From Pseudomonadota bacterium (lineage in GTDB: Bacteria > Pseudomonadota > Alphaproteobacteria > RF32 > CAG-239), in the NCBI GenBank assembly GCA_918234285.1, contig CAKJXZ020000028.1, positions 1-64,000 on the forward strand: a DNA stretch of 64,000 nt, given 5' to 3'. The notes under the pieces are model-generated. The model did no database searches and was not told the DNA's origin. It worked only from the letters and a program-made list of their open reading frames with translations. Shown piece by piece: positions 1,539-59,556 of this stretch. Positions within the stretch are counted from its first letter, which is position 1. Every line of letters begins with the position of its first letter. The translations under genes and the position numbers were made by a program.

Positions 1539-1567
1539 TTGCAAAGCCGGAAAAAACGTGCTACATT
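1539..1567 (+). promoter_or_regulatory. sigma70-like promoter of the lipoprotein/OMP pair
   Basis: TTGCAA-17bp-TACATT with extended -10 TG. Confidence 0.55.
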
Positions 1568-1573
1568 TATAGT

Positions 1574-1861
1574 GCTTATGAATTATCAATGTTTTATCAT
1601 TCTTCCTACAATTATACTGAGAACGTGTGATCACTTATATACGTTTTCATTGGATTTTATTGTTTGAGAGATTGATAGAACAGTCTATATACGCTTCGCC
1701 ATTTATGATGACGGAGTCCTGTGTTATGCAGTATGGTTTTCAGCTGCAACGCACGTAAAAAATTCTCCGTCATAGCGATGACAAAGGAATTTCTCACGAG
1801 TTGAGTGTTCCTTCAGCGAGATGAACCGTTCAAAAAAATACAAACAAAAAAATTACATCAT
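1574..1861 (+). promoter_or_regulatory. Long structured 5' leader (multi-hairpin, no SD)
   Basis: Stems TATCAAT 1584-1590/ATTGATA 1671-1677, TGAGAACGTGTG 1618-1629/TATACGTTTTCA 1638-1649 (G.U pairs) and ATGACGGAG 1708-1716/CTCCGTCAT 1765-1773, then an A-rich run to the ATG. Confidence 0.6.
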
Positions 1862-4147
1862 ATGAAGGGAAAAGTAAAAAGAAACCTCGCAAGTCTTTTT
1901 GTGCTTGCTCTGGTAATGTCTATGTTTTCTGCGTGTGAGTACTTCAATGAAGATCTCTCCACGCAGGAAGACAAGGAGGGTCCGGTAAAGCCGGATGAGC
2001 CCGTAGAGCCCGATGCACCGATTTTCTCGTTTGTTCATAACGAGACCCCAATCCCCAATGGTGTCCTTATCGACTGGACTGCTTCAGTGACTAACTATCA
2101 GTTGTCTGAAAGTGGTCAGGCTAGGATCGTGGTTTCTCACGAGAATGACAAGTATGCCGGCCCCGCGTCGGTATATGTGGAGTACTCACAAGAGAGAACC
2201 CACCATGGTGCGATAAAGACCACGGCGAAGGCATCTTCTAGCGACCGCAAGGTCAATGAGGATGCAGCCCGTACTTCCGCAGACGTAGAAGATGGCAACA
2301 TCGTCTATGCCGACCGTTCGATGGAGCGTATCACTCGCACCATCAATGGTAAGGAGTATGAGCTCCCCTATATCGAAATCGGACAGCCTTATCTTGAGGC
2401 TATTAACCAACTCCCCGGGACTACCAAGTACGGCACCCGTGGTGATAAGGTTATTACCGATTCCGTGTGCCGCGGATTCGTATGGAAGGCTATTTGCACC
2501 GTCAAGAACTTCGGTAATGAGACATTCCCCGTGACTCTGGGCGACACCATCAGAGTATACCAACTCTCCGATAACGAAATCGTCAGTGGCAAGATTGTTC
2601 GCGTCGATCGTACTCCGATCGATGAGACAACCGAGCGCTGCGACGTTGTCGTCGAGTGGACCTCTCTCGATGGCTCTAAGCACGAGCAGACCTATAGCAA
2701 GATTCTCAATCGTCGTATCACTGTGATTGACGAGTATGAGAAGGTTGTGACCTCTTTTGGTTACAGCTGGTTGTCAGACAACCCCTTGTCAGTAGGTCAG
2801 TCTTCTGTAATCTCTGATGATGGCACTTGGACTGTGTCGGGTCGTACCGATACTTTCTCAGGTTTACTCTCTAACGGTGTCTCTCCAATTAACACTTCAT
2901 ACGGTTTGTATCATGAGAAAGCTGAATTTGCTAATACCAGGTTCGGCCTCAAGCATACCTTTGATTATGAGAATTGGAACCCCCGTGAGAGAAATACTTA
3001 CGAGGAAGACATCAACAGCCCCCGTGGCGGATATGATGCTAAGAGACTTCACAATTCGATTTCCACCAGCTACCTCGGCTACGCCCAGGATGCTTCAGAG
3101 TCGGTTGTGCTGCTCCTCGAAAAAGCACATATCATCCATCAGGATTGGGATGAAGAGCATTGCACCGAGACTGTACACGATGGTCGCGTGGACTGGCACC
3201 TGGAATTTGTCACCGACTACTCGGATGGCAAGCAGGACCGTCTTACGTTCGATTTTTCGGATGTCCGTCTGCTCAACTGCGATTCCGACTGGTCTTCAGA
3301 AGAGGCGAATAATACTTACAGCACGTCTAACGTAACTGTAACTACCGCCAAAACTGAACCCCATGAGGAAACACAAAATGGCGCAAAAGCAAGCTGGGTA
3401 CGCGAGTACTACGACTTGCAGTCCTTGGTAACATTGTTAGGTTCAATTCAGAAAAATCATTGGACTTCTCGTGAGGCCAATAGTTTCAAGATTGTCTACA
3501 ACAATATCCCCTTCTCATTCGAGTCTAAGACTCTTGGCGCATCGAATTCAGACAATCTGTCTGCCGGTGTGGAGAAGGATGGACACACTGTATATTCTTA
3601 CTCCGACGTACTTCGCTACGTATGGGGTTCCAATATAAAGAACAGCACAGCACCCGGCACCCTCAAGGTGAAGATTGTTGTGCCTGAGGATGAGCGATTC
3701 TTCCCACCAGCTTGGGGAGACCTTCTTGAGGTTAAACAGACTGTTAGTAACAACGCTAAACACGACGGGTTCGTGTACGTGTTGAGCCACCACTTCGAAA
3801 AAGGCGTTCTGCCAGTTGTGGTACCTTCCGGTTCTGTTAGACCAGAGTGGCACTTCGAATATTTTGAGTATACTTCGGTTCATACGTATAATTCAGGTAC
3901 CTACATTGATGGTGTCTGGATTAATACTGTAGCTTCCGATCAGTTTAATCAAATGGTTTGGAGCCGCGATAACAAGGAGAAGGCCAAAAAGGACTATGTG
4001 ATTGCCAAATCCCAGAACTGGGATGAGGGTCGTTTAGTAGATGGTCATTGTTCCACCCAAACTTCTCGCTACGATATCAAGGTTGAGAATGGTCGCGTGA
4101 CCATTACCGATACTTACACCGGTAAGTATATGGGTAGCTGGAGATAA
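1862..4147 (+). CDS. Large Bacteroidota-style lipoprotein, beta-rich, unknown function
   Basis: Basic N-terminus, hydrophobic stretch, lipobox MFSA|C, then an acidic and Pro-rich linker (EDLSTQEDKEGPVKPDEPVEPD). GAG/AAG/CTC/TAC-rich codons unlike neighbouring genes. Confidence 0.75.
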   Translation: MKGKVKRNLASLFVLALVMSMFSACEYFNEDLSTQEDKEGPVKPDEPVEPDAPIFSFVHNETPIPNGVLIDWTASVTNYQLSESGQARIVVSHENDKYAGPASVYVEYSQERTHHGAIKTTAKASSSDRKVNEDAARTSADVEDGNIVYADRSMERITRTINGKEYELPYIEIGQPYLEAINQLPGTTKYGTRGDKVITDSVCRGFVWKAICTVKNFGNETFPVTLGDTIRVYQLSDNEIVSGKIVRVDRTPIDETTERCDVVVEWTSLDGSKHEQTYSKILNRRITVIDEYEKVVTSFGYSWLSDNPLSVGQSSVISDDGTWTVSGRTDTFSGLLSNGVSPINTSYGLYHEKAEFANTRFGLKHTFDYENWNPRERNTYEEDINSPRGGYDAKRLHNSISTSYLGYAQDASESVVLLLEKAHIIHQDWDEEHCTETVHDGRVDWHLEFVTDYSDGKQDRLTFDFSDVRLLNCDSDWSSEEANNTYSTSNVTVTTAKTEPHEETQNGAKASWVREYYDLQSLVTLLGSIQKNHWTSREANSFKIVYNNIPFSFESKTLGASNSDNLSAGVEKDGHTVYSYSDVLRYVWGSNIKNSTAPGTLKVKIVVPEDERFFPPAWGDLLEVKQTVSNNAKHDGFVYVLSHHFEKGVLPVVVPSGSVRPEWHFEYFEYTSVHTYNSGTYIDGVWINTVASDQFNQMVWSRDNKEKAKKDYVIAKSQNWDEGRLVDGHCSTQTSRYDIKVENGRVTITDTYTGKYMGSWR

Positions 4148-4160
4148 CCCTTCTTCCCCG

Positions 4161-4359
4161 CAATGGGGTCGAAGCGCGCGGACGGGTTCCGTGCTTATTT
4201 CCTCCCCATTGATATGTAATTTTTTAAAGTGTTTGATGCTCGAGGTTCGCCTTCTTGCAATAGTCATAATTATTTTCCGAGTGTGCCGGTCGGTATATAA
4301 GGAGATAGAGCGGCTATGCCGTATGACTTTGCGAGTTGGCGGTCTCGAGAGAACAACAC
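4161..4359 (+). promoter_or_regulatory. Structured intercistronic RNA (two hairpins)
   Basis: CAATGGGG 4161-4168/CCCCATTG 4204-4211; long rod 4229-4359 (CTCGAGG/TCTCGAG, TCGCC/GGCGG, CTTGCAA/TTGCGAG, AGTCATA/TATGACT). Confidence 0.65.
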
Positions 4360-4390
4360 AAAATTATTCATTTCAAAAACAATTACCACA

Positions 4391-5296
4391 ATGAAAAAGT
4401 ATATTTTTGCAGCCGCTCTGTGCTGCGCCATGAACGTTAGTGCACAAGTATGGGATGAGTCTAACTTCGGAGGCCTCACCCCCGAAATGAGCTCAAATTC
4501 AAATCCCGAGTTCGCCAACCGTAGCACGGTAACCGTCCTGAATGACCGTGACGCAACGCGCTACAAGGGCAACCATCAGGACGAGATTAAGGTCCTGGTT
4601 GGTAACAACCAGGAGCCCTTGATTCTCTGCTCTGAGGACAATCACGGTTACGACATCAATATATTCGCAGTTGGTGGCTGGTTCGCCGACCATAAAGTCT
4701 TGGGCGGAGGTGCCGGCGCAGGATGGGAAGCCCGTCGTGGCGGTATCGATGGTCGTTTTATCTTCCAGAGAGCACGCCCCGATGTTGCAAGCGATGACAT
4801 GAGTGTATTTCTCCAGGAGCGCGCGGAATTCCGTGCCTATTGGAAGCCGTTTACGTTCTGGAATAATCACGGAGCCGGTAAGGTTGGTGTGGCAGGAACA
4901 TTCCAGCTGTCCCAATTCTTAGATACCGAGACCTACGAGTGGTCTGGTAAGTCATTGAATCCCGATGGGACGACAACGACACATACCTCGACCCGTAGCG
5001 ATTTAGATATCCGCGAGTTTACTTCTGGCTGCTATGTGTTTGCCGAAGTATACTGGCACAAGGCGTTCTCGCCCTGGGGTCTGTTTGCTGGCGTATCTTA
5101 TGGTATTCAGCAGAACATTCTGCTGAATACGAACAAGTTCTACCAGGAGGTTAAGCTCTATGCAGGAGTTAGCTTCCGCTTTAACAAGCACAGGAAGTTC
5201 AACCATCCGGGCATGAAGTTCGCAGGCTATAATACCGAGTCTGAGGTCTGGAATCTCAGGCACGATATGAAACCCTACCAGACTCCGAATAAGTGA
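4391..5296 (+). CDS. Secreted protein, probable outer-membrane beta-barrel (Bacteroidota-style)
   Basis: Signal peptide MKKYIFAAALCCAMNVSA|Q with Gln at +1; amphipathic Gly/aromatic strands; last strand KLYAGVSFRF; no SD. Confidence 0.7.
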   Translation: MKKYIFAAALCCAMNVSAQVWDESNFGGLTPEMSSNSNPEFANRSTVTVLNDRDATRYKGNHQDEIKVLVGNNQEPLILCSEDNHGYDINIFAVGGWFADHKVLGGGAGAGWEARRGGIDGRFIFQRARPDVASDDMSVFLQERAEFRAYWKPFTFWNNHGAGKVGVAGTFQLSQFLDTETYEWSGKSLNPDGTTTTHTSTRSDLDIREFTSGCYVFAEVYWHKAFSPWGLFAGVSYGIQQNILLNTNKFYQEVKLYAGVSFRFNKHRKFNHPGMKFAGYNTESEVWNLRHDMKPYQTPNK

Positions 5297-5316
5297 TTCA
5301 CGACGTTCGCTATATA

Positions 5317-5361
5317 GAACAGCGCCTCTACCCTAACCGGAGAGACGCTGTTCGCTTTTTT
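5317..5361 (+). terminator. Intrinsic terminator
   Basis: GAACAGCG-CCTCT...AGAG-A-CGCTGTTC followed by a T-tract. Confidence 0.7.
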
Positions 5362-5382
5362 AAATATATGTGTTTTTTGCAT

Positions 5383-5426
5383 AAAAAAACGTTCGGTTTA
5401 TGAAATTCCTTTCATATACCGAACGT
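5383..5426 (-). terminator. Intrinsic terminator of the 69-aa gene
   Basis: ACGTTCGGT-T-TATGAAA/TTTCATA-T-ACCGAACGT with an A-run on its left. Confidence 0.75.
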
Positions 5427-5451
5427 CCGTAATTGCGAGAACCTCGAATGA

Positions 5452-5661
5452 TCATAAATCATCCCAGATTCCACACAGTAACAAAATGACAATACCACCT
5501 GCTGTGAGTAACCATCCGAAATGGACAACGCACCAAGTGGCAATGCCACCAAAAACAATAAGTTGAATAAGACCTTTTACAGTCTTGTCCTCCTTATGTT
5601 CCTTCCAAAGCCATTTGATTATACAAGCAATGGCGAGGATTACTACTATATATGTAAGCAT
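5452..5661 (-). CDS. Small membrane protein (69 aa, 2-3 TM)
   Basis: Hydrophobic helices; own promoter, leader and terminator; no SD. Confidence 0.7.
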   Translation of the reverse strand: MLTYIVVILAIACIIKWLWKEHKEDKTVKGLIQLIVFGGIATWCVVHFGWLLTAGGIVILLLCGIWDDL

Positions 5662-5667
5662 AATTTC

Positions 5668-5857
5668 TATAATTTAAGGGATTTATTTGCGCTTAACAAA
5701 CTACTCCCTCAAACGTATCGAAATTATCAACCAACCAAAACATAAAGTTCCGGAAGGCAGTAACAACAATAGCATTGAAAAGAATAATTTAATAATCGCA
5801 AATAAAATCCCTAATTTATAACACTTACATTATATATTTTTTTTGCAAATATGGCAA
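5668..5857 (-). promoter_or_regulatory. sigma70 promoter plus ~155-nt rod-like leader hairpin
   Basis: Minus strand TTGCCA(5857-5852)-17bp-TATAAT(5834-5829). Arms 5797-5820 and 5668-5691 are complementary and extend inward through a G.U-rich stem. Confidence 0.7.
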
Positions 5858-16989: not shown

Positions 16990-18120
16990 TCAGTCTTCGC
17001 GCACCTTAAACAGCGTGATGAAGTTAAACAGCTTAAAACTCTTAGCCTGCTTGCGATAAGTGATTTTATAAAGCGGAATAAACCCAAACAGATATACACG
17101 GCGCGAGCACCTTTTCGCGGCCGGTTTTAGAGCAGGTTTAGGAGCAGGTGCCGGTGTCGGTTTTGCTGGCTCGACTTTTTTCTCAACCTGTTTTGCAGCC
17201 GGTTTAGGTGCAGGTGTCGGCGCCGGTTTCGGTGCATCGCCGTAAGCCCCTAAATCCCACATATAAACGTAGTCGTAGGTTTCAAAACCTTTGGTCATTA
17301 TATAAGCAGCCAAAGCCCCATTGGCACGACCGCCGATAAGATAGCGACATTTTGAAAGCAAATACACCGAAAGCAAATACTCTTTGGCCAGGTTATAGAA
17401 GTGGTCTTTGCGGTCAACCTTTGCCTGATATATCAATTTGCCATTGACCGTATCGTATTTATAAGAATTGTTGTCAATAACCAATTCACCTAAAGCGGCC
17501 TTTATTTCCTTATAAATATTGGCATCTTCGGTAGCCAGATATATTTTTTTGAAGGTAAGTGTTTTTTTGAGCTCTTTTACCTTTTCGATTATCATCGGCG
17601 CCGTCGGTTGAATAGCGTGTCCTTTCGGTTTGGTTTCCACAAAATCTGTACCGCGCACGATAATTCCGAGAACATCCTTTTCATCACCGAAGATGTTGCG
17701 TAAGCCCTTATTCAAATATTTCTGTATATCGGGAGAAAAACGCATGTATTTTATGTATTCGGCCAAATAAGGATGTCTTGCTCTGGGGTCATCTTTAGAC
17801 AGTGGCAAATGTTGATTCCAAAGTTGGTATTTTCTTTTATCCGGTCCTTCCGCGGCAATGATAATATTGCTGTTTTGCGGAACATCTTCCGGCTTAATAT
17901 CATTCGGTTGCTTAAAGAAATAACACCACGGATTATCTTTGTATGCTTGCCCGTCCTTAAAATATTGGTTATAAGAATAGCGCATATCAACTACCGGAAT
18001 ATAACCCTGTTCTTTGGCATATATAACGTGGGCAATAGTATGTTTATACATAGAAAACAGACCGTCTTCCTTATATTGATTTCCAATAAAGTAGTAAGTT
18101 GCGGATGAATTATTTTTCAT
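16990..18120 (-). CDS. Putative glycosyltransferase (fucosyltransferase-like GT-B) with Pro/Ala/Lys linker
   Basis: VLGIIVRGTD and IYLATED motifs; LLSKCRYLIG; PKPAPTPAPKP repeats; C-terminal YLFGFIPLYKI hairpins. Confidence 0.65.
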   Translation of the reverse strand: MKNNSSATYYFIGNQYKEDGLFSMYKHTIAHVIYAKEQGYIPVVDMRYSYNQYFKDGQAYKDNPWCYFFKQPNDIKPEDVPQNSNIIIAAEGPDKRKYQLWNQHLPLSKDDPRARHPYLAEYIKYMRFSPDIQKYLNKGLRNIFGDEKDVLGIIVRGTDFVETKPKGHAIQPTAPMIIEKVKELKKTLTFKKIYLATEDANIYKEIKAALGELVIDNNSYKYDTVNGKLIYQAKVDRKDHFYNLAKEYLLSVYLLSKCRYLIGGRANGALAAYIMTKGFETYDYVYMWDLGAYGDAPKPAPTPAPKPAAKQVEKKVEPAKPTPAPAPKPALKPAAKRCSRRVYLFGFIPLYKITYRKQAKSFKLFNFITLFKVRED

Positions 18121-20335
18121 CTGGATTCTCCAATTTTTCAATCAACTGTTCACAGATATTTTCTTTGGTATAGAAGAACGAGTCGTATATTTTGCGAGTA
18201 ATCTCATCGGTTTTGAAATTGTTTTCGCAATATTCGATAACCCGCTCGACGGCAGCATCTTCGTCAAAAAATACATCAGGCAATACATATTGTTTGTAGT
18301 CAAATCTGCTTAAATCTTTGCTATCATAACGTCCCAACATCGGGTCGCCTTTATCCAACATATAAAACACCACCGGCTTATATTGAAACATAAAATCAAA
18401 AGCCACCGAAGAAAAATCGGTTATCAAACAAGAGCATTGTCGGATATATTGTGAAATACTATCGCTTTCTACAATCTTGATGTTGTTTTCGTCTGATAAA
18501 TCAAAATCAATATGCATATTTACCCAAAGCGCATGATGAGGTGCATAATATAATGTAATATTGTTTTTCTTGAGATATTTCGCTAATTTTTGATTATGCA
18601 GTAATTTCAACAAATTATACTTATACAATGACTGCTCGAAAGTTAAGGCATTAAGTTGTCTGAAGGTAAACATTAAAAGAATACTTTTTTCTTGCGGTTT
18701 CGGCAGGTCTTTCAACAAATCCCAACGCGGCAAACCGACCTTTATAAACTTCTCCGGCGGAAAATCATATTTAAGCCAAAGATTTTCTTCGCGGTCGGAA
18801 CATACCAAGAACTTATCGAATTTATTTGGAAATAAATAACCTTTATACAGCACACTTTCTTTCATGTAAGTTGGTCCGTGCTGTAAGAAGATATACTGCC
18901 AAGACGGATGACGACGGAAGAACATTTCCGTAGTACCGGAATTTTCACCAAACGAGGATAAAATATATTTGGTACGCAGCAAAACCTCATAAATCTTCTG
19001 CATAAATTCATTCGGGTGTGTTTGTGTGGAGAAATTCAAAACAATTACGTTTTCCAACTTATCCTCGGCCGCCAATTTTTGATAAAGTGCAGTTTGTTTG
19101 CGTACCACATAATAGGCTCGCAGACCCTTTTCTCTCATCTTTGCAAACAAAGTATATGCATCGATTGCTTCCGCCTTTTCATCATGCAAGCAATCAAACA
19201 AAAGATAGGTATCTTTCGGGTATTTCTTATAGTTTTTGCGCACCAGATTAATGTAATGCTGTTCGACAGCTAAGCGTCCGCAACGGCGTTTTATTTTGAA
19301 AGTAATGTTGAATATTTTGATTACGTTATGTCGCGGTGCTTTGGAAATCTTGATGTATTTTCCGAAAATATTCTTCAACTTATCTTTAAACCTAATTTTA
19401 CATTGCTTTTTCATTTCGTAAAATTCTTTGGCGGTCAAAAATTTACGCGCCGATTTTAAAAACGGTATTCTTTCGGAAGCCGGAACATTGCCGTATGTCC
19501 AAGCCATATTCATAGTTTTGAAATAATGCAGGTTCAGAGCCATCCGGTCGCGAAGATTTTGTTCGGTAAGAATCTGCTCGAGTTTTTCGGTAATTTCAAA
19601 AAAGTCCAGATATTTTTTGGTATAGCTGCGGACAATGGATTGCTTGCGTAAAATGTAATTATAGCCGGCATAGTCCAAAAAAGAAACGTTCTTTGCCAAT
19701 ATATGACTTTGCAAAATAAACGGACAATCTTCATAGCACATATTGTCAGTAAACCGGATATTATTTTTTTGCAAAAGCGAACGGCGATAAATTCTGTTCC
19801 AAGAATAACACGGAGAAATCAAAAGCGTATCCAACAAAGTTTCACGGTCGATGTTTTTACCCGACTCAACCTCTACCGGTTCGGCTTTGATATATTTAAC
19901 GGCTTTTTCAAAAAAATTATGCTCGAGTATGCGGTTGGTCCAAGATTGATAGCGCACATAATCGCAGATAACAATATCCGAATTCAGTTTTTTTGCCTGG
20001 TTATACAATTTTTCATACATATCTTCTTTGACCCAATCATCAGGGTCAATAAATCCGATATATTCACCGGTAGCTGCTTGTATACCGTTGTTGCGCGCCA
20101 CTCCCGGTCCGCCGTTTTCTTGATTAATAATTTTAATCCGCTTATCTTTGCGGGCAAAGCATTCCAAAATAGCCAAAGAATCATCGGTGGAAGCGTCGTT
20201 GACGCAGATAATCTCTATATCTTTGAGAGTCTGATCAATTAAAGATTTCAAACATCTAGGCAGATAACCTTGAACATTATACACCGGCAAAATAATCGAA
20301 ACCTTCGGCTTAGAAACGACTATATCTTTTTTCAT
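18110..20335 (-). CDS. GT2 glycosyltransferase fused to a TagF-like CDP-glycerol/ribitol phosphotransferase
   Basis: SIILPVYNV, NDASTD, ARNNG, FIDPDD; C-terminal FLQHG, GLPRWD, LLMFTFR, LITDFSSVAFDF. Confidence 0.88.
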   Translation of the reverse strand: MKKDIVVSKPKVSIILPVYNVQGYLPRCLKSLIDQTLKDIEIICVNDASTDDSLAILECFARKDKRIKIINQENGGPGVARNNGIQAATGEYIGFIDPDDWVKEDMYEKLYNQAKKLNSDIVICDYVRYQSWTNRILEHNFFEKAVKYIKAEPVEVESGKNIDRETLLDTLLISPCYSWNRIYRRSLLQKNNIRFTDNMCYEDCPFILQSHILAKNVSFLDYAGYNYILRKQSIVRSYTKKYLDFFEITEKLEQILTEQNLRDRMALNLHYFKTMNMAWTYGNVPASERIPFLKSARKFLTAKEFYEMKKQCKIRFKDKLKNIFGKYIKISKAPRHNVIKIFNITFKIKRRCGRLAVEQHYINLVRKNYKKYPKDTYLLFDCLHDEKAEAIDAYTLFAKMREKGLRAYYVVRKQTALYQKLAAEDKLENVIVLNFSTQTHPNEFMQKIYEVLLRTKYILSSFGENSGTTEMFFRRHPSWQYIFLQHGPTYMKESVLYKGYLFPNKFDKFLVCSDREENLWLKYDFPPEKFIKVGLPRWDLLKDLPKPQEKSILLMFTFRQLNALTFEQSLYKYNLLKLLHNQKLAKYLKKNNITLYYAPHHALWVNMHIDFDLSDENNIKIVESDSISQYIRQCSCLITDFSSVAFDFMFQYKPVVFYMLDKGDPMLGRYDSKDLSRFDYKQYVLPDVFFDEDAAVERVIEYCENNFKTDEITRKIYDSFFYTKENICEQLIEKLENPDEK

Positions 20336-20495: not shown

Positions 20496-20771
20496 CTAAA
20501 TAATGTTTATCAGGTGCAACAGCCAAAGTCCCGTCAACGGAAACCATAATTTGGCGCACAACATCCACGTTGATTCGAGCCATTTCGGCATTTTGGTTTC
20601 GTCAATCCAGAACGGTGTGACGAAAAGCAATAATTCCGCTATTGCCAGGGTAATGGCATAGGGATCTCCCTTAAACGCGTTGCCCAGCAAAACGACGGCA
20701 AACGCTCCCAAGGCTGCCGATATCAAAAAAGCGGCACAACCTTTGGCTCTTTTCTTCAAACTGGTACTCAT
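20496..20771 (-). CDS. Small membrane protein (91 aa, 3 TM)
   Basis: Three hydrophobic helices; minus-strand TTGACA-16bp-TATACT at 20834-20807; hairpin leader with no SD. Confidence 0.65.
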   Translation of the reverse strand: MSTSLKKRAKGCAAFLISAALGAFAVVLLGNAFKGDPYAITLAIAELLLFVTPFWIDETKMPKWLESTWMLCAKLWFPLTGLWLLHLINII

Positions 20772-20925
20772 AGGGCAAATAATATCTAAATATTCGAATT
20801 TGCTTCAGTATAACAGATATGTAAATTTTGTCAAGTTTTTTATCGAAGATATTTTTTTCTTGACAGCGGCAGGCAGATTGTCGATAAAAAATACAATGTC
20901 GAAGCAGTGGAAAAGGAGTTGTTGC

Positions 20926-24170: not shown

Positions 24171-24851
24171 ATGGTAAAGCCGAACAAAGAATACTTGGTT
24201 GAAGCTGAAAATAACGGCGCGCGCATACGCAAATTGCGGGCAAAAATTGCCGGTGGCGTGGTGGTTGCCGGCGCAACGGTTGCCACAGTGATGGGTTTAG
24301 GCAGTATGAATTCGGCCAGTGGTGAGGAGAAAGACAATTCGCAAAAGAATTCGACGGAAGTTCCGGCACCGAGTGCTACTCCCGTTAATGACGGTAAAAC
24401 CGCATACCCCTTCGGCTACAGCGATCCGAATGAAAATCCGGAAACGCCGGAACAAAGAAACGAGCGTGAGGCTGAAGAAGAATTTGAAAGAATCCGAGCC
24501 GGCGAATATACACACGGTGATGCCGGAACCGACCGTGCTCTGCGGGGTGTGCAGATGGGCGAACGGCAGGGAACACTCAAAGAAGGCGATATTCCGCAAT
24601 ATACCCTGACCGGTGCTTCTCCGCAATATGATGATGAGCCGGGAGTCGTACATGACGGTTTTGCCATTGACGGCAGCGAAATCCCGTCGGAAAGTAAAGG
24701 TATCAGAACCTGGCAAAACGAGGACGAAGATGTATCGCAAATGATACGGAATCGTATGAATTCGCGTTTTGACATATCAACAAGGGCGCAAAAGGAAATG
24801 GCTTTGCAGTTGATGAAACATATTAAAAGTAACCATTCGGATTATGATTAA
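24171..24851 (+). CDS. Orphan protein with one TM helix and an acidic, disordered body
   Basis: SD GGGAG; TM IAGGVVVAGATVATVMGLG; terminator at 24859-24893. Confidence 0.75.
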   Translation: MVKPNKEYLVEAENNGARIRKLRAKIAGGVVVAGATVATVMGLGSMNSASGEEKDNSQKNSTEVPAPSATPVNDGKTAYPFGYSDPNENPETPEQRNEREAEEEFERIRAGEYTHGDAGTDRALRGVQMGERQGTLKEGDIPQYTLTGASPQYDDEPGVVHDGFAIDGSEIPSESKGIRTWQNEDEDVSQMIRNRMNSRFDISTRAQKEMALQLMKHIKSNHSDYD

Positions 24852-26675: not shown

Positions 26676-26760
26676 TACACACGCAGACAGGCGTCAGGGC
26701 TAAAGTCCTCGTCGCTCCGGTGCTGTAAAAAGCCAAGAGTCTGCGGAGGTTTAACCGGAA
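26676..26760 (+). promoter_or_regulatory. rpsB (S2) autoregulatory leader
   Basis: ACACACGCAGAC...GTCTGCGGAGG..AACC stem directly upstream of rpsB, typical of proteobacterial S2 leaders. Confidence 0.7.
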
Positions 26761-26776
26761 AAAGGATATATATAAA

Positions 26777-38262: not shown

Positions 38263-39483
38263 GTGAATTCGGGATATAAAGCATTTATAGCAATAACTTT
38301 AGCTACTGTTGCCATAATCAAAACCAAGGCGCAGACGGATTCTTTTGAGAATTCTAAAGACAGTATTTGTCTGACTTCGGCACTTGTGAAGCATCCGGAT
38401 ATTGAGAATGCAGCACAAGATACGACGGTTACGATTGAGGCTGAGGATTTTGCAAAATTCCTGATGAATAAAGACAATGGAAAGGAAAATGAAGAAGAAG
38501 CCGAAACTCCGTGGAAAGATACTCCGAGGGGAAAAGAGATTATCACCACTTGGGAACGCATAAGCAAACAAGATGGTAATTACAGCGAAATTACCGAAGA
38601 CGATATCACAAATTTGCAGGAAATCGACAATACCAGCCATTTTGCAATAGCATTGGCCGAAGGTCTCAAAAACTATATTATGGACGGCGAAGATATGCTG
38701 CGCTCAAATACAGATAGTTTAGGTCTGGAATTGGAGAGATCTGCTAAAATGGAAGCTAACGGACCGGGAAACAGGTGTTACAGATGGATTAAGCATATTT
38801 TGTCGGGTACAAATCCGATTGCTTGGCTTGACGGAGATTCTGCTTACGAGGCGGAGAAATACTTAGATGAAAGCCCGAATGTGGTAAAAACCAAAACGAT
38901 ATTTAAAAATATGGATAAACTTATCCCCGGCGGTATAGCCGTTTTTGGCAGAGGCCCCGGTGCAATTAACGGGCATATTTTGATTGGTGGCAAAGGCCCG
39001 TTGAAACAGATTGAGAGCTACATAACCGATTGGGGCAGAGAATATTTATATAATCCGGCGCGCGACATTTCCGATGTTAATCGCAATGCCAACACTTCCG
39101 GTACTCGTAACAGAGGACGCGGACACTATAATCCGGAGCCGAGGATTTACTATACGGCAAATTCCACACTTTCCGGTGTAACGATTCTGAAAATCGGCTA
39201 TCAGTACGCCAAAGAAAAAATGTCAAGGCTGTTTGTTTCAACTCAAGACGTATTTGACGCCGTTATGCAAATAAATCAAAAATCTGCCGAATTGTGGGCT
39301 CATAAAGTTCTGAAAGAAAAAGAAAAAATTGACGGTTTTAACCAATTTAAAGGACAAACCGCGTATTACGAATATCCGGCTACCCGTCCTGCCAATCCGC
39401 GCGGTGTCAGATATACTAAAGCCAAAACTCCGACTACTTTGCCGCTGATTAATCGTGCTCGTGGCGGCAATCGCAGAATGTAA
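38263..39483 (+). CDS. Orphan protein with a putative CHAP/NlpC-P60-like Cys-His amidase domain
   Basis: N-terminal hydrophobic segment; GNRCYRWIK...SAY...PGGIAVF...NGHILIG; Arg-rich tail. Confidence 0.6.
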   Translation: MNSGYKAFIAITLATVAIIKTKAQTDSFENSKDSICLTSALVKHPDIENAAQDTTVTIEAEDFAKFLMNKDNGKENEEEAETPWKDTPRGKEIITTWERISKQDGNYSEITEDDITNLQEIDNTSHFAIALAEGLKNYIMDGEDMLRSNTDSLGLELERSAKMEANGPGNRCYRWIKHILSGTNPIAWLDGDSAYEAEKYLDESPNVVKTKTIFKNMDKLIPGGIAVFGRGPGAINGHILIGGKGPLKQIESYITDWGREYLYNPARDISDVNRNANTSGTRNRGRGHYNPEPRIYYTANSTLSGVTILKIGYQYAKEKMSRLFVSTQDVFDAVMQINQKSAELWAHKVLKEKEKIDGFNQFKGQTAYYEYPATRPANPRGVRYTKAKTPTTLPLINRARGGNRRM

Positions 39484-54543: not shown

Positions 54544-55101
54544 TTAAGCACGTGCTTTTTCTGCTTCGTAGAAACGGTCGATGTTGTTGTCTGCCCTATA
54601 TTTGCGGATAGCTCGTTCGTAGATGTCGGCATAATGGGGAGCCCTGTCTTCATCCTTGTCCCGTTCATCAAGTCTTCTCAGTACCAGAGGTAAATCCGAA
54701 TAGTATATGCGGCAACAGGTACAGACGGTCTCGATAAGCTGTCGATACGTACCGGCACCGGCGGCCAGAGCCTTGCGACAAATTTTCATCGCCTGTTCTT
54801 CGGTGTAGGAGTAGCGAGTAAATTCCGCAACCAGAGCCTTTTCGGCAATCTCTGACTGTAGATTTTCAATCAGCATATTCACAGCAGGCTTGCTGAGAAT
54901 GTAATGCTTGCGATACTCAGCCATCCACATCAGCCATTCGTTGGGGTTCTCATCTGAGAGCAGACGTCTTACCAATTCGATTTCCTCTTCCGGAGAGAAC
55001 GCATAAGCATAGGTGTCGGTTGAGCCGCTGAGGGTCTGACCGAATACGGCGGCGGAAAGTTCAACCACACGACCGCTTCTGATAATATTGATAATTTCCA
55101 T
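54544..55101 (-). CDS. Orphan alpha-helical protein
   Basis: Minus-strand TTGACA-17bp-TATGAT promoter at about 55163-55135; A/T-rich SD-less start; inverted repeat 54526-54563 over the stop codon. Confidence 0.7.
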   Translation of the reverse strand: MEIINIIRSGRVVELSAAVFGQTLSGSTDTYAYAFSPEEEIELVRRLLSDENPNEWLMWMAEYRKHYILSKPAVNMLIENLQSEIAEKALVAEFTRYSYTEEQAMKICRKALAAGAGTYRQLIETVCTCCRIYYSDLPLVLRRLDERDKDEDRAPHYADIYERAIRKYRADNNIDRFYEAEKARA

Positions 55102-55191
55102 ATGTAATTTGATAATAATTCCAAAACTCCCCGCATCATAACGCAATATACGGTTTTTGTCAATATGGAAAAATGAAAACGCGGTGTTTTT

Positions 55192-55881: not shown

Positions 55882-55933
55882 TCTTACCTCATCGCCGCGT
55901 ATTATACACGTTGAGAGTTAAAAAAAAGTTCAT

Positions 55934-55964
55934 AAAAAAACTCCCGAGCGATTAAACTCGGGAG
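55934..55964 (-). terminator. Intrinsic terminator
   Basis: CTCCCGAG/CTCGGGAG with an A-run on its left. Confidence 0.8.
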
Positions 55965-55998
55965 GGGAATAGTTAGTTTAACTGTTCAGTTAGAGCCT

Positions 55999-56124
55999 TC
56001 ACAGGCTATCGTCCAGGTCTTCCTCGCGTTTGCGAGGCAGGCGGCCGTTTTCGAGGGGCCGTTTTTCTGAAGCTGCCCGGCGCGAAGGATTCTTGCCGAG
56101 CAAATCATCTGCTTTTTGATTCAT
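55999..56124 (-). CDS. Putative 41-aa charged peptide (not in the ORF track)
   Basis: Translated by hand: MNQKADDLLGKNPSRRAASEKRPLENGRLPRKREEDLDDSL; A-rich SD-less start; lies between a hairpin and the terminator. Confidence 0.45.
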   Translation of the reverse strand: MNQKADDLLGKNPSRRAASEKRPLENGRLPRKREEDLDDSL

Positions 56125-56184
56125 ACTTTTCTTTTTTTAGTGGCCGCGGACATCGTCATTAAAGACCGATGCCCGCGCCTGATG

Positions 56185-56862
56185 TTAGAGTTTCCAGTTT
56201 ACCTTCAAAACGGCGATTGCGTCGTCACACTTCAATGCCTTGACTTGCTTATCCAGAGTCTTGGAGTTAGTGTCATAACGCTGACCGTTTGATACGCCAT
56301 CGGCATCGAACATCTGCCAGCCCTTAGCATCCTTTACCAGAACGGCCATGTGCGGGTCGTTCTTGACGATAAGGACACGTTCGAACTTGCGCGGAGCCAG
56401 ACCGCGGAGATCAATGGTGGCAGCGCCCCACTTTCCTTCCTGGCACATAAACACGATGTCATCGATCAGTTTGATATCCTCAAACGGACCAAACGTCGAT
56501 GACGTGCCGATCTTCCAGAGCATTTTCTTGCCATCCGCCTTGATGTATGCATACTCAGTATTGCCTACAACGGGTTCGACTGCCTCGATGTTGATACCGC
56601 TGGCAATAACCGAACTGTTCACGACGATTGAAGTCAGGTCACCGGTCTTGGCAAACACGGCCTTGTTGACGGTGTCTTCGACAATCTCATCGAACTCGGG
56701 CGCCAACACGACACTTCCTCCTTCGCTCTTCAATCCATACTTGCCATTGGCTTCAGTCAACTCATAGTCGCCGACTTTCTTCACCTCTTTGTTCGAGCAC
56801 GATGTAAAACTGACTGCTGCCACAGCTATCGCTGCTGCAACAAAAAATAATACTTTCTTCAT
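56185..56862 (-). CDS. Bacteroidota-style lipoprotein with WG-repeat-like units
   Basis: MKKVLFFVAAAIAVAAVSFTS|C; NGKYGL...G.VVL.P.FD.I and EGKWGA; promoter TTGACA-17bp-TAGATT at 56965-56937; no SD. Confidence 0.8.
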   Translation of the reverse strand: MKKVLFFVAAAIAVAAVSFTSCSNKEVKKVGDYELTEANGKYGLKSEGGSVVLAPEFDEIVEDTVNKAVFAKTGDLTSIVVNSSVIASGINIEAVEPVVGNTEYAYIKADGKKMLWKIGTSSTFGPFEDIKLIDDIVFMCQEGKWGAATIDLRGLAPRKFERVLIVKNDPHMAVLVKDAKGWQMFDADGVSNGQRYDTNSKTLDKQVKALKCDDAIAVLKVNWKL

Positions 56863-57058
56863 TTGCTTTGATTTTTGAAAATAAAACAATATTTGAAAAC
56901 TAACACTAATATTCACAATAGTTGTAAAACATACTCAATCTAACGTATTTTGTAAATTTTGTCAAGCTAAAAATAAAAATTTGTGTAAAAATTTTGCTTT
57001 GCGGCAAAAAAAACTTGATTTATCCAAAATATTATAATAGTTATATGTTGTTTTGAAT

Positions 57059-57144
57059 GCGGCCATGGCGGAATTGGTAGACGCGTAACGTTGAGGTCGT
57101 TATGAGCTAAGCTCGTGGAAGTTCAAGTCTTCTTGGCCGCACCA
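57059..57144 (+). tRNA. tRNA-Leu(GAG)
   Basis: Acceptor GCGGCCA/TGGCCGC; anticodon arm TAACG-TTGAGGT-CGTTA; variable arm; GTTCAAGT; ACCA end. Confidence 0.97.
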
Positions 57145-57191
57145 ATTCAAAACTGACTTTGAAAATTTGTGCATCAAAGGAGAGCTTAATA

Positions 57192-58145
57192 ATGCTGCGT
57201 ATTTATAAAACGGAAGACGGCGGAAAACTTGTTAAGCTCAAAAGATTCGGTAAAGTTACCCAAGCCTGGTTCAGTTTGACCAATCCTACCGCCAGCGAAA
57301 TCAGTAAAGTTTCGTCGCTGCTCGCGGTCGATTCGGATATTTTGCGCAACTCTTTGGATGCCGATGAACGTTCGCGAGTTGAATTAGACGAAGGGGTATT
57401 CTCCACCATCGTGAACTTGCCGTTGTTGGATGAAGACGGTAACTTTGATACGTTGCCGTGCGGCTTGGTGTTCAGCGGCGAAAACTTTTTGACGATTTGT
57501 TCCAAAGATAATCGTATTTTAAGCTCCTTTAACAAAAACACAGCCAAGAGTTTTGATACGCGTGAGCGCACCAAGTTTATGCTTTCGATTCTTTATAAAA
57601 TCACGCAGTTTTATTTGCGCTACTTGGCGATAATTAATCGCAAAACCGAGCATATTGAAGATTCGCTCAAACAAACCACGCACAACGAGGAACTTTTCCA
57701 GCTGATGGAAATTCAGAAATCTCTGGTGTACTTCACTACCGCTTTGCGCGATAACCAACTGGTTTTGGAAAAGATTCTGCGTATGACCAAATCGCCGGCC
57801 AGCTCAAAATATTTAGCCTTTACCGAAGATGACACCGATTTGTTGGAAGACGTTATCGTGGAAAATAAACAGGCTATCGAAATGGTGGATATGCACCGCT
57901 CGATTTTGGAAGGCATGATGGATGGTTTTGCCTCGATTATCAACAATAACTTAAACCAGATTATGAAGTTTTTGGCCGCCATTACGATTGTGCTTTCGAT
58001 TCCGACTATGCTCGGCACTTTTTGGGGAATGAACGTCGGCGTGCCGTTTTTGAATGAAACCGTCGGTTTTGGTGTGGTGATAGCGCTGTCGTTGCTGGCA
58101 ACTTTGGTGGTGATTTTATATTTCCGCAAAAAGGGAATGTTTTAG
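57192..58145 (+). CDS. corA: CorA-family magnesium transporter
   Basis: LD.DERSR, KSLVYF, NNNLNQIMK and WGMNV. Confidence 0.93.
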   Translation: MLRIYKTEDGGKLVKLKRFGKVTQAWFSLTNPTASEISKVSSLLAVDSDILRNSLDADERSRVELDEGVFSTIVNLPLLDEDGNFDTLPCGLVFSGENFLTICSKDNRILSSFNKNTAKSFDTRERTKFMLSILYKITQFYLRYLAIINRKTEHIEDSLKQTTHNEELFQLMEIQKSLVYFTTALRDNQLVLEKILRMTKSPASSKYLAFTEDDTDLLEDVIVENKQAIEMVDMHRSILEGMMDGFASIINNNLNQIMKFLAAITIVLSIPTMLGTFWGMNVGVPFLNETVGFGVVIALSLLATLVVILYFRKKGMF

Positions 58146-58153
58146 AAAAATAC

Positions 58154-58398
58154 TTGACAAAATCCACAATAAGCCATATACTGACCTTACTTATTTAAGT
58201 ATTAGGGATGATTTTATGTTTATTTTTGGGTCGTTTTTGAAATTTCTTTCAAATTCCGGTTTATGAATGAATGTGAAAGATTCTTTATTGCTGAAGATGA
58301 GCGTTGTTTCGGATGAGCGTAAAGCTCTGTTTCCGCGGAACGACAAACCTTTTATTCATATCCCGATTGGAAACTAGGGTGCCAAAATTTTTACAACT
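58154..58398 (+). promoter_or_regulatory. sigma70 promoter plus ~210-nt structured SD-less leader
   Basis: TTGACA-17bp-TATACT at 58154-58182; nested stems TTTTGG/CCAAAA, TATGAATGAA/TTTATTCATA, GTTGTTTC/GGAACGAC and GAGC/GCTC. Confidence 0.7.
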
Positions 58399-59556
58399 AT
58401 GGCAAAGAATTTCAAAAACAATGGAGTTATGGGCACTGTAAAGGAACTCGGTGCCAGAGTGTGGGCAATTGGCAAGTTGATGGTCGGTGTGCTTCTCGGT
58501 ATAGGAGCCGCTATTCTGTGGACGGCAGTTTGCCTGGTAGGGTTTATTATCAGCCCGCTGTGGTTTCCCGTGTGCTGCATTAAGGCGCCGGAAAGTACGG
58601 CATTGAGCTTGAATTGCTCTCTCTCCAAGCATAAGGGAGAGGGGTTGTTCAACTACTTCTACCTTGTACTTACGGTGCTGTTCCGCATCTGCGGTTGGCT
58701 CTATGCTCCGCTGATTAAGGTACTGCCGATGAAGTACCGTGCGGAGTTTATCCGCAACGGCAAAAAGAGGGTGTGTGAATATCCGACCAAAGTTCAGGTA
58801 GCCTACTATAAGTCGCACTGCGACGAAAGTAAGCAATCGCTTCTTGGAAGCGGCGTATTCACTCCGGAGGCACGGGCAACCATTTGGCAGGACAAAAGTG
58901 AGTGGGAGAATTGGATTTTATCAGGTCTGACCCTTACCAAAAGTCAAGTCATTGACATGATTAAGGCTGGTGCAACCAACCTGCTGTGGTCGTACTTCAA
59001 GAACAACACCCCGAGCAAGGAAATGTTGGTTATCTTGTGCGACCACGCCGGTCAGGGACATGGTTCTGCCCAAGAGATCTTAGTGAAACTGGTTCGCCAG
59101 CAGCGACCGAGCAAAGAATTGCTCGCTCGCATCCACGGAACCTGTCAGACTCGTTTCATTGAGCGCGTCAATGAGATTCTTGATTCCTACGCCGACATGG
59201 ACGCGGTAAACTTCAGTATTTCTGAGGTTTATGGTGAACTCTCGGACGAAGAGAAGCAGAAAATTGTGGACGAACGGTGGGCGAATTTCTGTAAGGTGAA
59301 GAAGAGTATTTCTTTATCCGCACAGAAAAAGATGAACCACGCACAGTTCAAAGCGTTTATCGCTTCAGGTCACCGCTTAGAGTACTATGCTCTTTTGCAT
59401 TTGCTCCTCAACATAAACAATGAGGAGTATCTCAAGGAGGTGATTTCGACCGAGCTGGAACACATCCAGGATAACAGGATCCTGTCCGCTCTTAAGGCCG
59501 ATTACTGGCGTTACAGTTGCTACAATGCGGTGGTCAGCGAGAAGAACGCCGCATAA
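58399..59556 (+). CDS. Orphan protein with two N-terminal TM segments and a helical body
   Basis: 385-aa ORF; GAG/AAG/CAG-rich codons; own promoter and terminator. Confidence 0.8.
   Translation: MAKNFKNNGVMGTVKELGARVWAIGKLMVGVLLGIGAAILWTAVCLVGFIISPLWFPVCCIKAPESTALSLNCSLSKHKGEGLFNYFYLVLTVLFRICGWLYAPLIKVLPMKYRAEFIRNGKKRVCEYPTKVQVAYYKSHCDESKQSLLGSGVFTPEARATIWQDKSEWENWILSGLTLTKSQVIDMIKAGATNLLWSYFKNNTPSKEMLVILCDHAGQGHGSAQEILVKLVRQQRPSKELLARIHGTCQTRFIERVNEILDSYADMDAVNFSISEVYGELSDEEKQKIVDERWANFCKVKKSISLSAQKKMNHAQFKAFIASGHRLEYYALLHLLLNINNEEYLKEVISTELEHIQDNRILSALKADYWRYSCYNAVVSEKNAA

Follow-up and report, generated by a model that had tools for sequence, protein, structure and literature searches.

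Why does a bacterium that uses Shine-Dalgarno (SD) sequences keep genes whose start regions, codons and secretion signals resemble those of another phylum? The question is raised by eight orphan genes scattered over a 64,000-nt stretch of DNA (the window), i.e., positions 1 to 64,000 of contig CAKJXZ020000028.1, named C28 below. An earlier note on this DNA had described them as transcribed from native promoters and formatted like Bacteroidota mRNAs, and had speculated that these mRNAs are exported and translated in a Bacteroidota host or prey. The results presented below lead to another answer: the genes belong to a class found throughout the genome, and the reading we favour, with a probability of about 0.55, is that of accessory envelope genes used by the cell itself, translated independently of SDs and carrying a format which is either foreign or convergent.

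A genome-wide class of SD-less, codon-atypical genes

The window is part of a metagenome-assembled genome (MAG; G000) of 71 contigs and 2.0 Mb, with 43.4% guanine plus cytosine (GC), rated 100% complete with 2.58% contamination. Close relatives of its EF-Ts (<=99% identical) all come from uncultured Alphaproteobacteria of rumen and gut metagenomes, from many projects. It is reasonable to consider the organism as a small-genome alphaproteobacterium living among rumen Bacteroidota.

Genes were called with an open reading frame (ORF) finder of our own, followed by selection on codon log-odds and by an iterative start model; 1789 genes were obtained for G000. An SD was scored when the duplex with ACCUCCUUA had a free energy (dG) of -4.5 kcal/mol or lower. 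The anti-SD was taken as canonical because the MAG contains no 16S gene. SDs are present in 71% of the 1789 called genes vs. 16% at internal start codons: SD use by the organism is clear, and roughly a quarter of its genes do without. Codon-atypical genes were defined by a three-class likelihood (atypical, typical, highly expressed). Iterative codon clustering had been dropped, as it drifted to ribosomal and highly expressed genes.

By this definition 64 of the 1789 genes are atypical, and 51 of them are SD-less vs. 462 of the 1725 other genes (odds ratio 10.7, p = 9e-18). When only genes with at least 60 nt of upstream space are considered, the SD-less fraction is 45/54 for the atypical genes and 282/968 for the others. 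The 51 SD-less atypical genes (hereafter the class) are distributed over 24 contigs and have a median length of 193 aa; 45 have at least 60 nt of free upstream DNA, and they mostly form single promoter-gene-terminator units. The dispersed class claimed by the earlier note thus exists, and its core is stronger than was stated. The share of G-ending codons among Glu, Lys and Gln (E/K/Q), called here the G-ending index, has a genome median of 0.32 with a thin upper tail: it exceeds 0.55 in 37 of the 1383 genes of at least 150 aa, 81% of which are SD-less. About 27% of native genes are SD-less too, and these show no codon offset. Among the 13 SD-bearing atypical genes are a prophage-like cluster on contig C27 and duplicated genes on C26 and C61, which look like a different kind of foreign DNA.

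The upstream k-mers of class genes are dominated by TTGACAAAAT. The element TTGACAAA is found upstream of 19/45 class genes vs. 48/968 others (p = 2e-12), and TTGACA-N16-18-TANNNT upstream of 17/45 vs. 84/968. Because TTGACAAA also precedes, at the same distance, these 48 native-codon genes, most of which have strong SDs, the class promoter is the host's ordinary sigma-70 type, as the earlier note had maintained. The foreign format is confined to the leader and the coding region. Class promoters are given here as predicted from the sequence. The full Bacteroidota promoter, TTTG-N17-23-TAnnTTTG, is not enriched (1/45 class genes vs. 8/968 others); a lone TAnnTTTG, i.e., the -7 box, is enriched (14/45 vs. 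103/968, p = 0.0003), at scattered distances of 11-178 nt from the ATG.

The native-format genes preceded by TTGACAAA have their promoter about 47-90 nt before the ATG, and two of them lie in the window (24171-24851 and 38263-39483). Many of the 48 look like orphan proteins; together the 48 make up a second set of autonomous units, in native format.

Alignment of the class units on their -35 box places the -10 box 16-17 nt downstream, often with ATTATT about 15 nt past it; a 20-25-nt A/U-rich tract then reaches the AUG. ATTATT occurs at -50 to -15 in 27% of the 51 class genes vs. 6% of 968. In the start logo of the class, A reaches 0.49-0.64 at -15 to -12, G stays at 2-9% over most of -17 to -6, and U reaches 0.56 at -2 and 0.82 at -1. 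For 70 unambiguous Prevotellaceae starts, the corresponding values are 0.47-0.57 for A at -15 to -12 and 0.44 for U at -2 and -1. An overrepresentation of A at -14 to -11 is called characteristic of Bacteroidetes in PMC6847099. The start profile of the class correlates at 0.46 with Prevotellaceae and at 0.35 with native SD-less genes, with overlapping bootstrap ranges; its correlation with SD-using sets is about zero or negative. Inside the coding regions, SD-like motifs are three times denser in class genes and less avoided (observed/expected 0.79 vs. 0.58 by synonymous shuffles).

The units of the window are listed below. Promoters were scanned as TTGACA-N16-18-TATAAT over 12 box positions, with a reporting threshold of 9/12; cleavage sites are marked by a hyphen.

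1539..1567, + strand: promoter-like site of the 761-aa gene, TTGCAA-17-TACATT, 8/12, below the scan threshold
1575..1861, + strand: structured leader of about 290 nt with an A-rich SD-less start region at its end (folding, conservation)
1862..4147, + strand: 761-aa lipoprotein, lipobox FSA-C followed by EYFNED, tandem all-beta domains; SD dG +2.2, G-ending index 0.71
4391..5296, + strand: 301-aa predicted outer-membrane beta-barrel protein, signal ending in NVSA-Q; G-ending index 0.75
5318..5361, + strand: terminator-like hairpin and T-run after the 301-aa gene, seen by eye, 11/12 stem pairs, 11-nt loop; not listed by the scan
5452..5661, - strand: 69-aa membrane protein, SD-less, counted as a member solely for its promoter and leader format
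5829..5857, - strand: promoter of the 69-aa gene, TTGCCA-17-TATAAT, 11/12 (scan)
20496..20771, - strand: 91-aa membrane protein, SD-less, upstream sequence ending ATTATTTGCCCT-ATG
20807..20834, - strand: promoter of the 91-aa gene, TTGACAAAAT..., 16-nt spacer, TATACT, i.e., TTGACA-16-TATACT (by eye)
54544..55101, - strand: 185-aa protein of no known family, SD-less, atypical codons (codon and SD scores)
55135..55163, - strand: promoter TTGACA-17-TATGAT, 11/12 (scan)
55941..55964, - strand: intrinsic-terminator-like hairpin closing the 56862 unit (scan)
55999..56124, - strand: 41-aa ORF, following the lipoprotein gene as the second ORF of the 56862 unit (read from the sequence)
56185..56862, - strand: 225-aa lipoprotein, FTS-C followed by SNKE, SD-less, atypical codons (ORF, SD and codon scores)
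56937..56965, - strand: promoter TTGACAAAAT..., 17 nt, TAGATT, 10/12 (scan)
58154..58182, + strand: promoter TTGACAAAAT..., 17 nt, TATACT, 11/12 (scan)
58190..58398, + strand: leader of about 210 nt ending CAAAATTTTTACAACT-AUG, its first 112 nt forming one G.U-rich hairpin (folding)
58399..59556, + strand: 385-aa membrane-anchored protein; its family, restricted to the lineage, includes paralogues on contigs C12, C32 and C24
59569..59605, + strand: strong terminator-like hairpin of 17 pairs after the 385-aa gene (scan)

The near-consensus promoters which had been attributed to each unit are found, with scores of at least 10/12, before 58399, 55101(-), 56862(-) and 5661(-), and by eye before 20771(-), where the promoter matches the format of the genome-wide class promoter. 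They do not extend to all eight genes: the scan found no promoter of 9/12 or more for 4391, which may be co-transcribed with 1862; the site before 1862 reaches only 8/12, yet it is kept in the orthologous loci L004 and L009; and 56124 lies within the 56862 unit. Clear terminators follow 58399 and the 56862/56124 unit, and one is visible by eye after 4391. The leader of the 69-aa gene is about 165 nt long, with ATTATT repeats near its 5' end.

All eight starts are SD-less and A/U-rich, as had been described, with two caveats. For 4391, our start model preferred an ATG farther upstream, at 4316, which is preceded at 11 nt by AAGGAG, so that this start is ambiguous; it was moved from 4316 to 4391 before the class counts. 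The public gene call for the 58399 protein starts at M11, with GGAG 4 nt upstream (58399-58431), and in four paralogues of this protein the A/U-rich motif ahead of the first AUG is conserved. Start predictions cannot be relied on for genes of this class. Concerning the codon bias, the claim is valid for the five larger genes (1862, 4391, 54544-55101, 56185-56862 and 58399), all of which fall in the genome-wide G-ending tail, and not for the three small ORFs (5452-5661, 20496-20771 and 55999-56124), where no bias is detectable.

Other features of the window are as follows. From 18001 to 20000 the GC content is 0.363, vs. about 0.44 elsewhere, over a 741-aa gene (18110-20335, - strand) which may be another, AT-rich kind of foreign gene. 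A tRNA-Leu(GAG) lies at 57059-57144, between two class units. The Rfam rpsB leader RF01815 is found at 26678-26771 (46.2 bits), upstream of rpsB.

A stable codon offset and its distribution in the lineage

The codon use of the class differs from that of native genes in the direction of three Prevotellaceae genomes (r = 0.85-0.90), which also give the lowest root-mean-square deviation (rmsd) to the class (0.090-0.113). A rumen Lachnospiraceae genome is about as near (rmsd 0.104, r = 0.77) and a high-GC Caulobacterales genome has r = 0.82 with the class direction; for this reason, the codon use of the class is compatible with Prevotellaceae, not diagnostic. The correlation of the start profile with Prevotellaceae is not clearly above that with native SD-less genes. 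The likeness to Bacteroidota described in the earlier note is upheld for start region, codon use and, as shown below, secretion signals; in codon use it is not specific to Prevotellaceae.

GC at third codon positions (GC3) is 0.57 in the class vs. 0.47 in native genes, with no difference at GC1 and GC2 and an intergenic GC of 0.377. Neutral drift is ruled out by this intergenic GC and by the equal GC1 and GC2. A highly-expressed-gene signature is ruled out as well, since highly expressed genes favour GAA (0.85), the opposite of the class. GC-biased gene conversion remains a partial candidate: it fits the two-fold codons, and not the fall of CCG, GCG and TCG.

The offset is not limited to G000. 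The G-ending index is 0.50-0.63 for class genes vs. 0.25-0.33 for native genes in all four genomes compared, i.e., G000 and its three close relatives G448, G446 and G447. At 8 of 9 further loci carrying the 761-aa/301-aa pair, class orthologues reach 0.59-0.91 and native neighbours 0.15-0.44; an unattributed 292-aa ORF (L003:3903-4781) scores 0.39. The ninth locus belongs to a low-GC genome, in which the class orthologues have 0.30-0.41 vs. mostly 0.04-0.30 (up to 0.37) for other ORFs; they still have SD-less starts, a Gln at +1 and acidic residues following the lipobox Cys. The offset thus shifts with the GC content of each host genome and is roughly constant on a logit scale.

Changes at E/K/Q codons were polarised by parsimony on the G000 and G448 branches. 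For the class, 28 A>G and 45 G>A changes were counted (conserved: 51 A, 99 G); for native genes, 403 A>G and 128 G>A (conserved: 1862 A, 300 G). The class and native odds ratios differ 2.4-fold (z = 2.72, p = 0.0065). Parsimony inflates common-to-rare changes (native control: 559 T>C vs. 201 C>T), so that only the class-native contrast was used; in class genes this bias runs counter to the result. From all this, the offset is old, follows the mutation pressure of the host and is kept apart from native genes by a class-specific force.

The evolution of the class within the lineage was followed by comparing eight regions of 6-20 kb between G000 and the three close genomes. Median identity to G448 is 86% for class proteins vs. 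96% for native ones. Class genes are present at 95/63/74% in G448/G446/G447, vs. 93/92/83% for native genes. Between G000 and G448, the median ratio of nonsynonymous to synonymous divergence (dN/dS) is 0.096 for the class (n = 17) and 0.047 for native genes (n = 99), and the median dS is 0.71 vs. 0.52, with values above 1.8 in 4 of the 17 class genes. As examples in the window, the 185-aa gene is syntenic in G446-G448 at 63-67% identity (dS about 3) and the 225-aa lipoprotein is 82-85% identical in G446 and G448. A two-gene unit with promoter and terminator (C63:1570-4376) is lacking in G446 and G447, where its flanks are conserved. These alignments indicate that purifying selection acts on class genes, and that their presence varies through gain and loss among close relatives.

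A dispersed repeat of about 100-130 bp (L234:1464-1790, C63), with dozens of partial copies in G446-G448, stands directly upstream of the absent unit; it may be a miniature inverted-repeat transposable element (MITE)-like element. Separately, overlapping 12-mers around AAAATCTCCGCCGACTT and its complement have about 20-24 copies each in G000 and form a short repeat family. Counts of DNA-uptake-sequence and uptake-signal-sequence motifs gave nothing.

The 761-aa family is found in 21 of the 24 genomes of the genus, often in several copies and including giant multi-repeat forms, and in 0/16 genomes of other families of the class Alphaproteobacteria. In six other species, orthologous loci have the lipoprotein and barrel genes next to the same pilin-like gene, again with A-rich SD-less starts. 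In RUG13901, whose EF-Ts is 99% identical, the two proteins of the pair are only 54% and 45% identical; identity at 4-fold sites is 0.28-0.34 in the pair, i.e., the chance level, vs. 0.64-0.67 in the native flanks. The genes of the pair behave like hypervariable alleles. The pilin-like gene itself (375-1058 in the window) and its paralogues (C3:68333; L004; L009; L355; L356) share the N-terminus GRSMIEMLGVLAIIGVLSVGGIAG; their bodies are only 65% identical between near relatives, and they adjoin class units in several genomes.

Among 5.8e9 proteins, relatives are few (6 for the 301-aa protein, 22 for the 385-aa protein), and the sole organism-named one is labelled Alphaproteobacteria. The ESM Atlas gave no usable match for the 761-aa protein and only one lead, of 0.79, for the 385-aa protein. 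No Pfam family above cut-off was found for 25 of the 27 class proteins scanned; the two exceptions are an HD_3 phosphohydrolase and a Peptidase_C26 amidotransferase. In the window, the 761-aa, 69-aa, 185-aa and 385-aa proteins have no Pfam family. The Peptidase_C26 member was dropped as a pointer to a donor, having no close relative outside the lineage. A scan of viral contigs for the barrel family gave nothing. One IMG/VR contig (IMGVR_UViG_3300029965_000286; L360:2695-3126) has an ORF sharing the C-terminal motif of the 761-aa protein (44% over 41 aa). This ORF is terminal, stands beside tail-fibre-like and leucine-rich-repeat-like ORFs, and has an SD and AT-rich codons; the shared C-terminal domain might be used by a phage to bind its receptor, or be itself targeted by phages.

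Two explanations can be weighed at this stage. The first is a binning or assembly artefact, in which Bacteroidota fragments would have been joined into alphaproteobacterial contigs. The MAG does consist of 71 contigs with a measurable contamination. However, the atypical genes stand singly between native genes on long contigs, the same units recur at syntenic positions in at least 5 other MAGs from different projects, the promoters are of the host type and no Bacteroidales homologue was found for the three families searched (see below); the probability of an artefact is considered as negligible.

The second is a recurrent import from an unsampled foreign pool (Bacteroidota-like cells, plasmids or phages), the copies being young and not yet ameliorated. 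The presence or absence of units between close relatives, the silent-site divergence of the RUG13901 alleles, far above that of their flanks, the dS values above 1.8 and the motif shared with the viral contig are all in favour of such an import. On the contrary, most units are syntenic with a dS like or above, not below, that of native neighbours; class codon use shifts with the GC of the recipient; relatives are few, and the one with an organism name is labelled Alphaproteobacteria; the one junction inspected showed neither an integrase nor a border repeat; and the viral ORF is itself SD-bearing and AT-rich. Recurrent import is therefore judged unlikely. The argument of the earlier note against a plain recent horizontal gene transfer (HGT) is upheld: orthologues in other species keep the format, and the Bacteroidales searches brought no homologue.

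Products, leaders and the place of translation

A model of the 301-aa protein built with 11 homologues is a beta-barrel, with a predicted local distance difference test score (pLDDT) of 72. Foldseek aligns it with the OmpA, OmpW, NspA, OmpX and Ail barrels (E down to 1e-5, TMt up to 0.72). The AlphaFold2 model of the 761-aa protein is all-beta, a chain of beta-sandwich-like domains over residues 55-604 (pLDDT 67.7), for which a fold search of the PDB gave no credible match (TM <= 0.13). The pair may well lie on the exposed surface of the bacterium itself, where a strongly expressed, hypervariable lipoprotein and barrel would be expected.

Signal peptides were called with a crude rule and by reading N-termini, i.e., without a signal-peptide predictor. 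The rule gives 16 signal-like class proteins, 5 of them with lipobox-like motifs. Gln occupies position +1 in 6/6 class proteins read as cleavable substrates of signal peptidase I (SPI) vs. 25/271 native signal-like proteins; three of these six were obtained by the rule and three by reading N-termini whose starts had been miscalled too far downstream. Q19 of the 301-aa barrel protein is kept in at least 90% of 11 homologues (19-86% identical). The class lipoproteins have a mean of 1.8 acidic residues in the five positions after the lipobox Cys, vs. 0.56 for 41 native ones. The lipoboxes and the Gln after a signal peptide which the earlier note had pointed out are consequently confirmed, and they extend over the genome.

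Such marks have counterparts in Bacteroidetes. According to PMC5837995, a Gln at +1 (the Q-rule) is specific to Bacteroidetes; there and in PMC10653852, it is tied to this phylum and to glutaminyl cyclase. PMC5080379 gives QKDDE, K-(D/E)2, SDDDD and SDDFE as the consensus of the lipoprotein export signal (LES). One class lipoprotein, with CQKADDE, approaches QKDDE; it is the only one near consensus of the 5-6 class lipoproteins available. No glutaminyl cyclase was found in the genome with the two families searched: PF05096 (Glu_cyclase_2) gave no match, and PF04389 (M28) reached 17.9 bits, below its cut-off of 21.3 bits.

Long leaders are the other mark of the class. Two were folded and compared with 200 shuffles each. 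The leader at 1575-1864 has a minimum free energy of -71.4 kcal/mol (z = -3.39, 0/200 shuffles equal), and that at 58190-58401 has z = -2.26 (4/200 shuffles equal). The structured leaders of the earlier note are thus retained for these two; the description "rod-like" fits only the latter, since the former folds as several hairpins. The 290-nt leader of the 761-aa gene is conserved over 5-6 species, more than the coding region, with several invariant blocks. Compensatory changes are seen in 9 of its 36 predicted pairs, and a long-range stem of GAUGACGGAG with CUCCGUCAUC co-varies, by eye, in L002 and L003. For the 385-aa paralogues on C12, C32 and C24, leader length is 244-255 nt (on C24, 357 nt when counted to the called ATG, which is probably miscalled). 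All of them share the promoter and end in CAAAAnTTTTAC..U-AUG. The class leaders of the window have no Rfam match at the gathering score; the only families matched there are two tRNAs and the rpsB leader. The long leaders are taken to be new cis-acting elements.

Concerning expression, contigs of one sheep-gut metatranscriptome (X1) cover 56026-56207, 58598-58892 and 59247-59571, in addition to native genes; this is compatible with transcription of class units. Three other runs (X2-X4) gave stray pieces only, and uncovered parts carry no weight.

G000 encodes 45 tRNA genes, among them Lys-CUU, Glu-CUC, Gln-CUG (two copies) and Leu-GAG, with Gly-CCC also in two copies. Since these match the codons of the class, the host can read them.

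Could the transcripts, or precursor proteins, nevertheless be handed to attached Prevotella-like Bacteroidota cells? The SD-blind ribosomes, SPI, glutaminyl cyclase and LES export of the partner would then use them, and the envelope of the partner would be remodelled. All the traits of the format would be accounted for at once, i.e., the A-run without SD, the codon direction, Gln at +1 and the acidic residues after Cys up to CQKADDE, together with the missing cyclase and the weaker avoidance of internal SD-like motifs; moreover, the persistence of the codon offset calls for some selective force. No result supports an exported mRNA, however, and several fit use by the cell itself. The promoters are not of Bacteroidota type. 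The units are scattered rather than clustered. Some class members belong to ordinary cytoplasmic enzyme families (HD_3, Peptidase_C26). The offset follows the GC of the host, not a fixed optimum of a partner, and the codon likeness is shared by the Lachnospiraceae genome. SD-less starts are a common feature of native genes, and the host is able to read these mRNAs itself. No export or injection system came to light, none having been looked for. To our knowledge, translation of an exported bacterial mRNA in another phylum has no precedent. The speculation of the earlier note is thus not followed, and use of these genes in another cell is regarded as very improbable.

A home-grown regulon is another possibility: the genes would have arisen or diversified in the lineage and would be co-regulated at three layers, i.e., a strong promoter, an SD-less A/U-rich leader, and codons AAG, GAG and CAG read by C34 tRNAs. 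The likeness to Bacteroidota would then come from the same mode of initiation and from similar envelope constraints, not from ancestry. All detected relatives are indeed within the lineage, nearly all scanned proteins lack a Pfam family and the Bacteroidales searches were negative for the three families. The dedicated CUU, CUC and CUG tRNAs (Gln-CUG twice), the offset constant on a logit scale and the proximity of Lachnospiraceae also agree with it. On the other hand, four independent Bacteroidota-type traits are found together (SD-less starts with an A-run, Gln at +1, acidic residues after Cys, codon direction), one of which, the Q-rule, is described as specific to that phylum; native SD-less genes do not share the offset; and three small members have no codon bias. 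An entirely home-grown origin is possible and considered rather doubtful.

The interpretation which we prefer, accessory envelope genes used by the cell itself, can be stated as follows: (i) about 50 mostly single-gene units each have the host's ordinary sigma-70-type promoter; (ii) their mRNAs would be translated in the alphaproteobacterium itself, by SD-independent initiation of bS1 type on an unstructured A/U-rich start region; (iii) in some units, a long conserved structured leader would probably regulate or stabilise the mRNA; (iv) the products are lineage-restricted, evolve fast and are held by purifying selection; a few are enzymes, and many would be envelope proteins, such as the surface-type lipoprotein made of tandem beta-sandwich domains, the small outer-membrane barrel and small membrane proteins; (v) the Bacteroidota-like marks (third-position usage, the A-run, Gln at +1, acidic residues after Cys) would go back to an old transfer from a Bacteroidota-like source or have converged on that format, and in both cases it is a class-specific force, not recent arrival, that keeps them in place. 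The class with its promoter and leader format, its distribution, its selection regime and its stable codon offset are observed; where the mRNAs are translated, the part played by S1, the surface location and the origin are deduced. The conservative alternative of the earlier note, i.e., old HGT with S1-dependent SD-less translation and structured regulatory leaders, comes closer to the evidence than its exported mRNAs, except that HGT receives no support from homology.

Several results weigh against this interpretation. The first ones concern homology, which was searched for three families in 401 genomes each of the order Bacteroidales. A seven-member profile of the 761-aa family gave 0 credible and 4 marginal matches (E 0.002-0.009), the latter lying in the signal-peptide region or interrupted by stops. 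A 571-aa class protein gave one marginal match. The 225-aa lipoprotein gave remote repeat-type matches (22-30% identity) in 6 of the 401 genomes. The nearest non-lineage relatives of the Peptidase_C26 member, 25-31% identical, are from Chloroflexota and Firmicutes. As far as these searches go, homology yields no donor and no backing for a Bacteroidota origin; the homologues which the earlier note had proposed to look for in Bacteroidota were not found in a credible form. Second, the codon evidence is partial: the polarised contrast is significant for E/K/Q only (p = 0.33 for Y-ending codons), and the raw excess of G>A over A>G in the class (45 vs. 28) would also fit a slow decay of the offset. 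Third, the starts are those predicted by our own model, not mapped ones, the RNA contigs come from a single metatranscriptome in which DNA carry-over is possible, and the place of translation is one we infer from sequence. Fourth, Gln at +1 is conserved though no cyclase was found, and a role purely in the cell itself leaves this Gln unexplained.

The conserved Gln without a cyclase and a codon offset which persists without a donor form the unexplained core, and make the finding worth following. Atypical codons and a missing SD are normally read as the fading scar of a recent transfer. In the present case it persists: over a whole genus, a consistent group of envelope and orphan genes retains a format that looks foreign, under purifying selection, with host promoters and no detectable donor. 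If selection maintains this format, the class would be a natural case of two mRNA dialects in one cell, and would offer a way to study SD-independent initiation and codon-tuned regulons in Alphaproteobacteria. Should the format point to Bacteroidota partners, it would bear on the life of small-genome gut alphaproteobacteria among Prevotella. For annotators, it must be noted that start-codon and HGT predictors mishandle such genes; two starts of the window are ambiguous for that reason. A single search of the literature on RF32, CAG-239, Alphaproteobacteria and the rumen did not bring up the phenomenon, and no claim of its being unpublished is made.

Comparison with known systems

Agrobacterium T-DNA carries bacterial genes formatted for expression in a recipient. 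As an idea, the class resembles it in that coding and signal features seem tuned to the machinery of another organism. The T-DNA differs from the class, where promoters are of the producer type, genes are dispersed, and no borders or transfer system were seen, no search aimed at transfer machinery having been made.

Phage morons are autonomous promoter-gene-terminator inserts. They share with the class the presence of single genes, often for envelope proteins, with their own strong promoter and terminator between unrelated genes. The class differs by its chromosomal housekeeping context over 24 contigs and by the absence of flanking prophage genes in the window; moreover, the prophage-like atypical genes on C27 carry SDs.

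Horizontally acquired genes of atypical composition ameliorate over time. Such genes and the class have in common atypical third positions, a patchy presence, a faster protein evolution and mostly no family. Two properties separate them: no donor homologues were found for the class, and its offset is kept in five species, with a dS of 0.5-0.7 between the closest two.

The secretion signals lead to a similar balance. With the Q-rule of Bacteroidetes, the class shares Gln at +1 of its SPI substrates, conserved in the barrel homologues; unlike the situation in that phylum, no cyclase was found and the native secreted proteins of G000 do not obey the rule. With the LES (C-X-K-(D/E)2, SDDDD, SDDFE), it shares the acidic enrichment after Cys, whereas most class motifs (CEYFNED, CSNKEVK, CEPDPLG, CVIEDGS) are off the minimal motif.

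The last comparison is with the SD-independent initiation of Bacteroidia, in which the anti-SD is sequestered by bS21/bS18/bS6. Here the mode would concern about 3% of the genes, in a genome with 71% SD use, and the logo differs: its strongest signal is the U at -1 (0.82), and A at -3 stays at 0.40. The features in common are those of the start region itself: no SD, an A-run and a depletion of G before the start codon.

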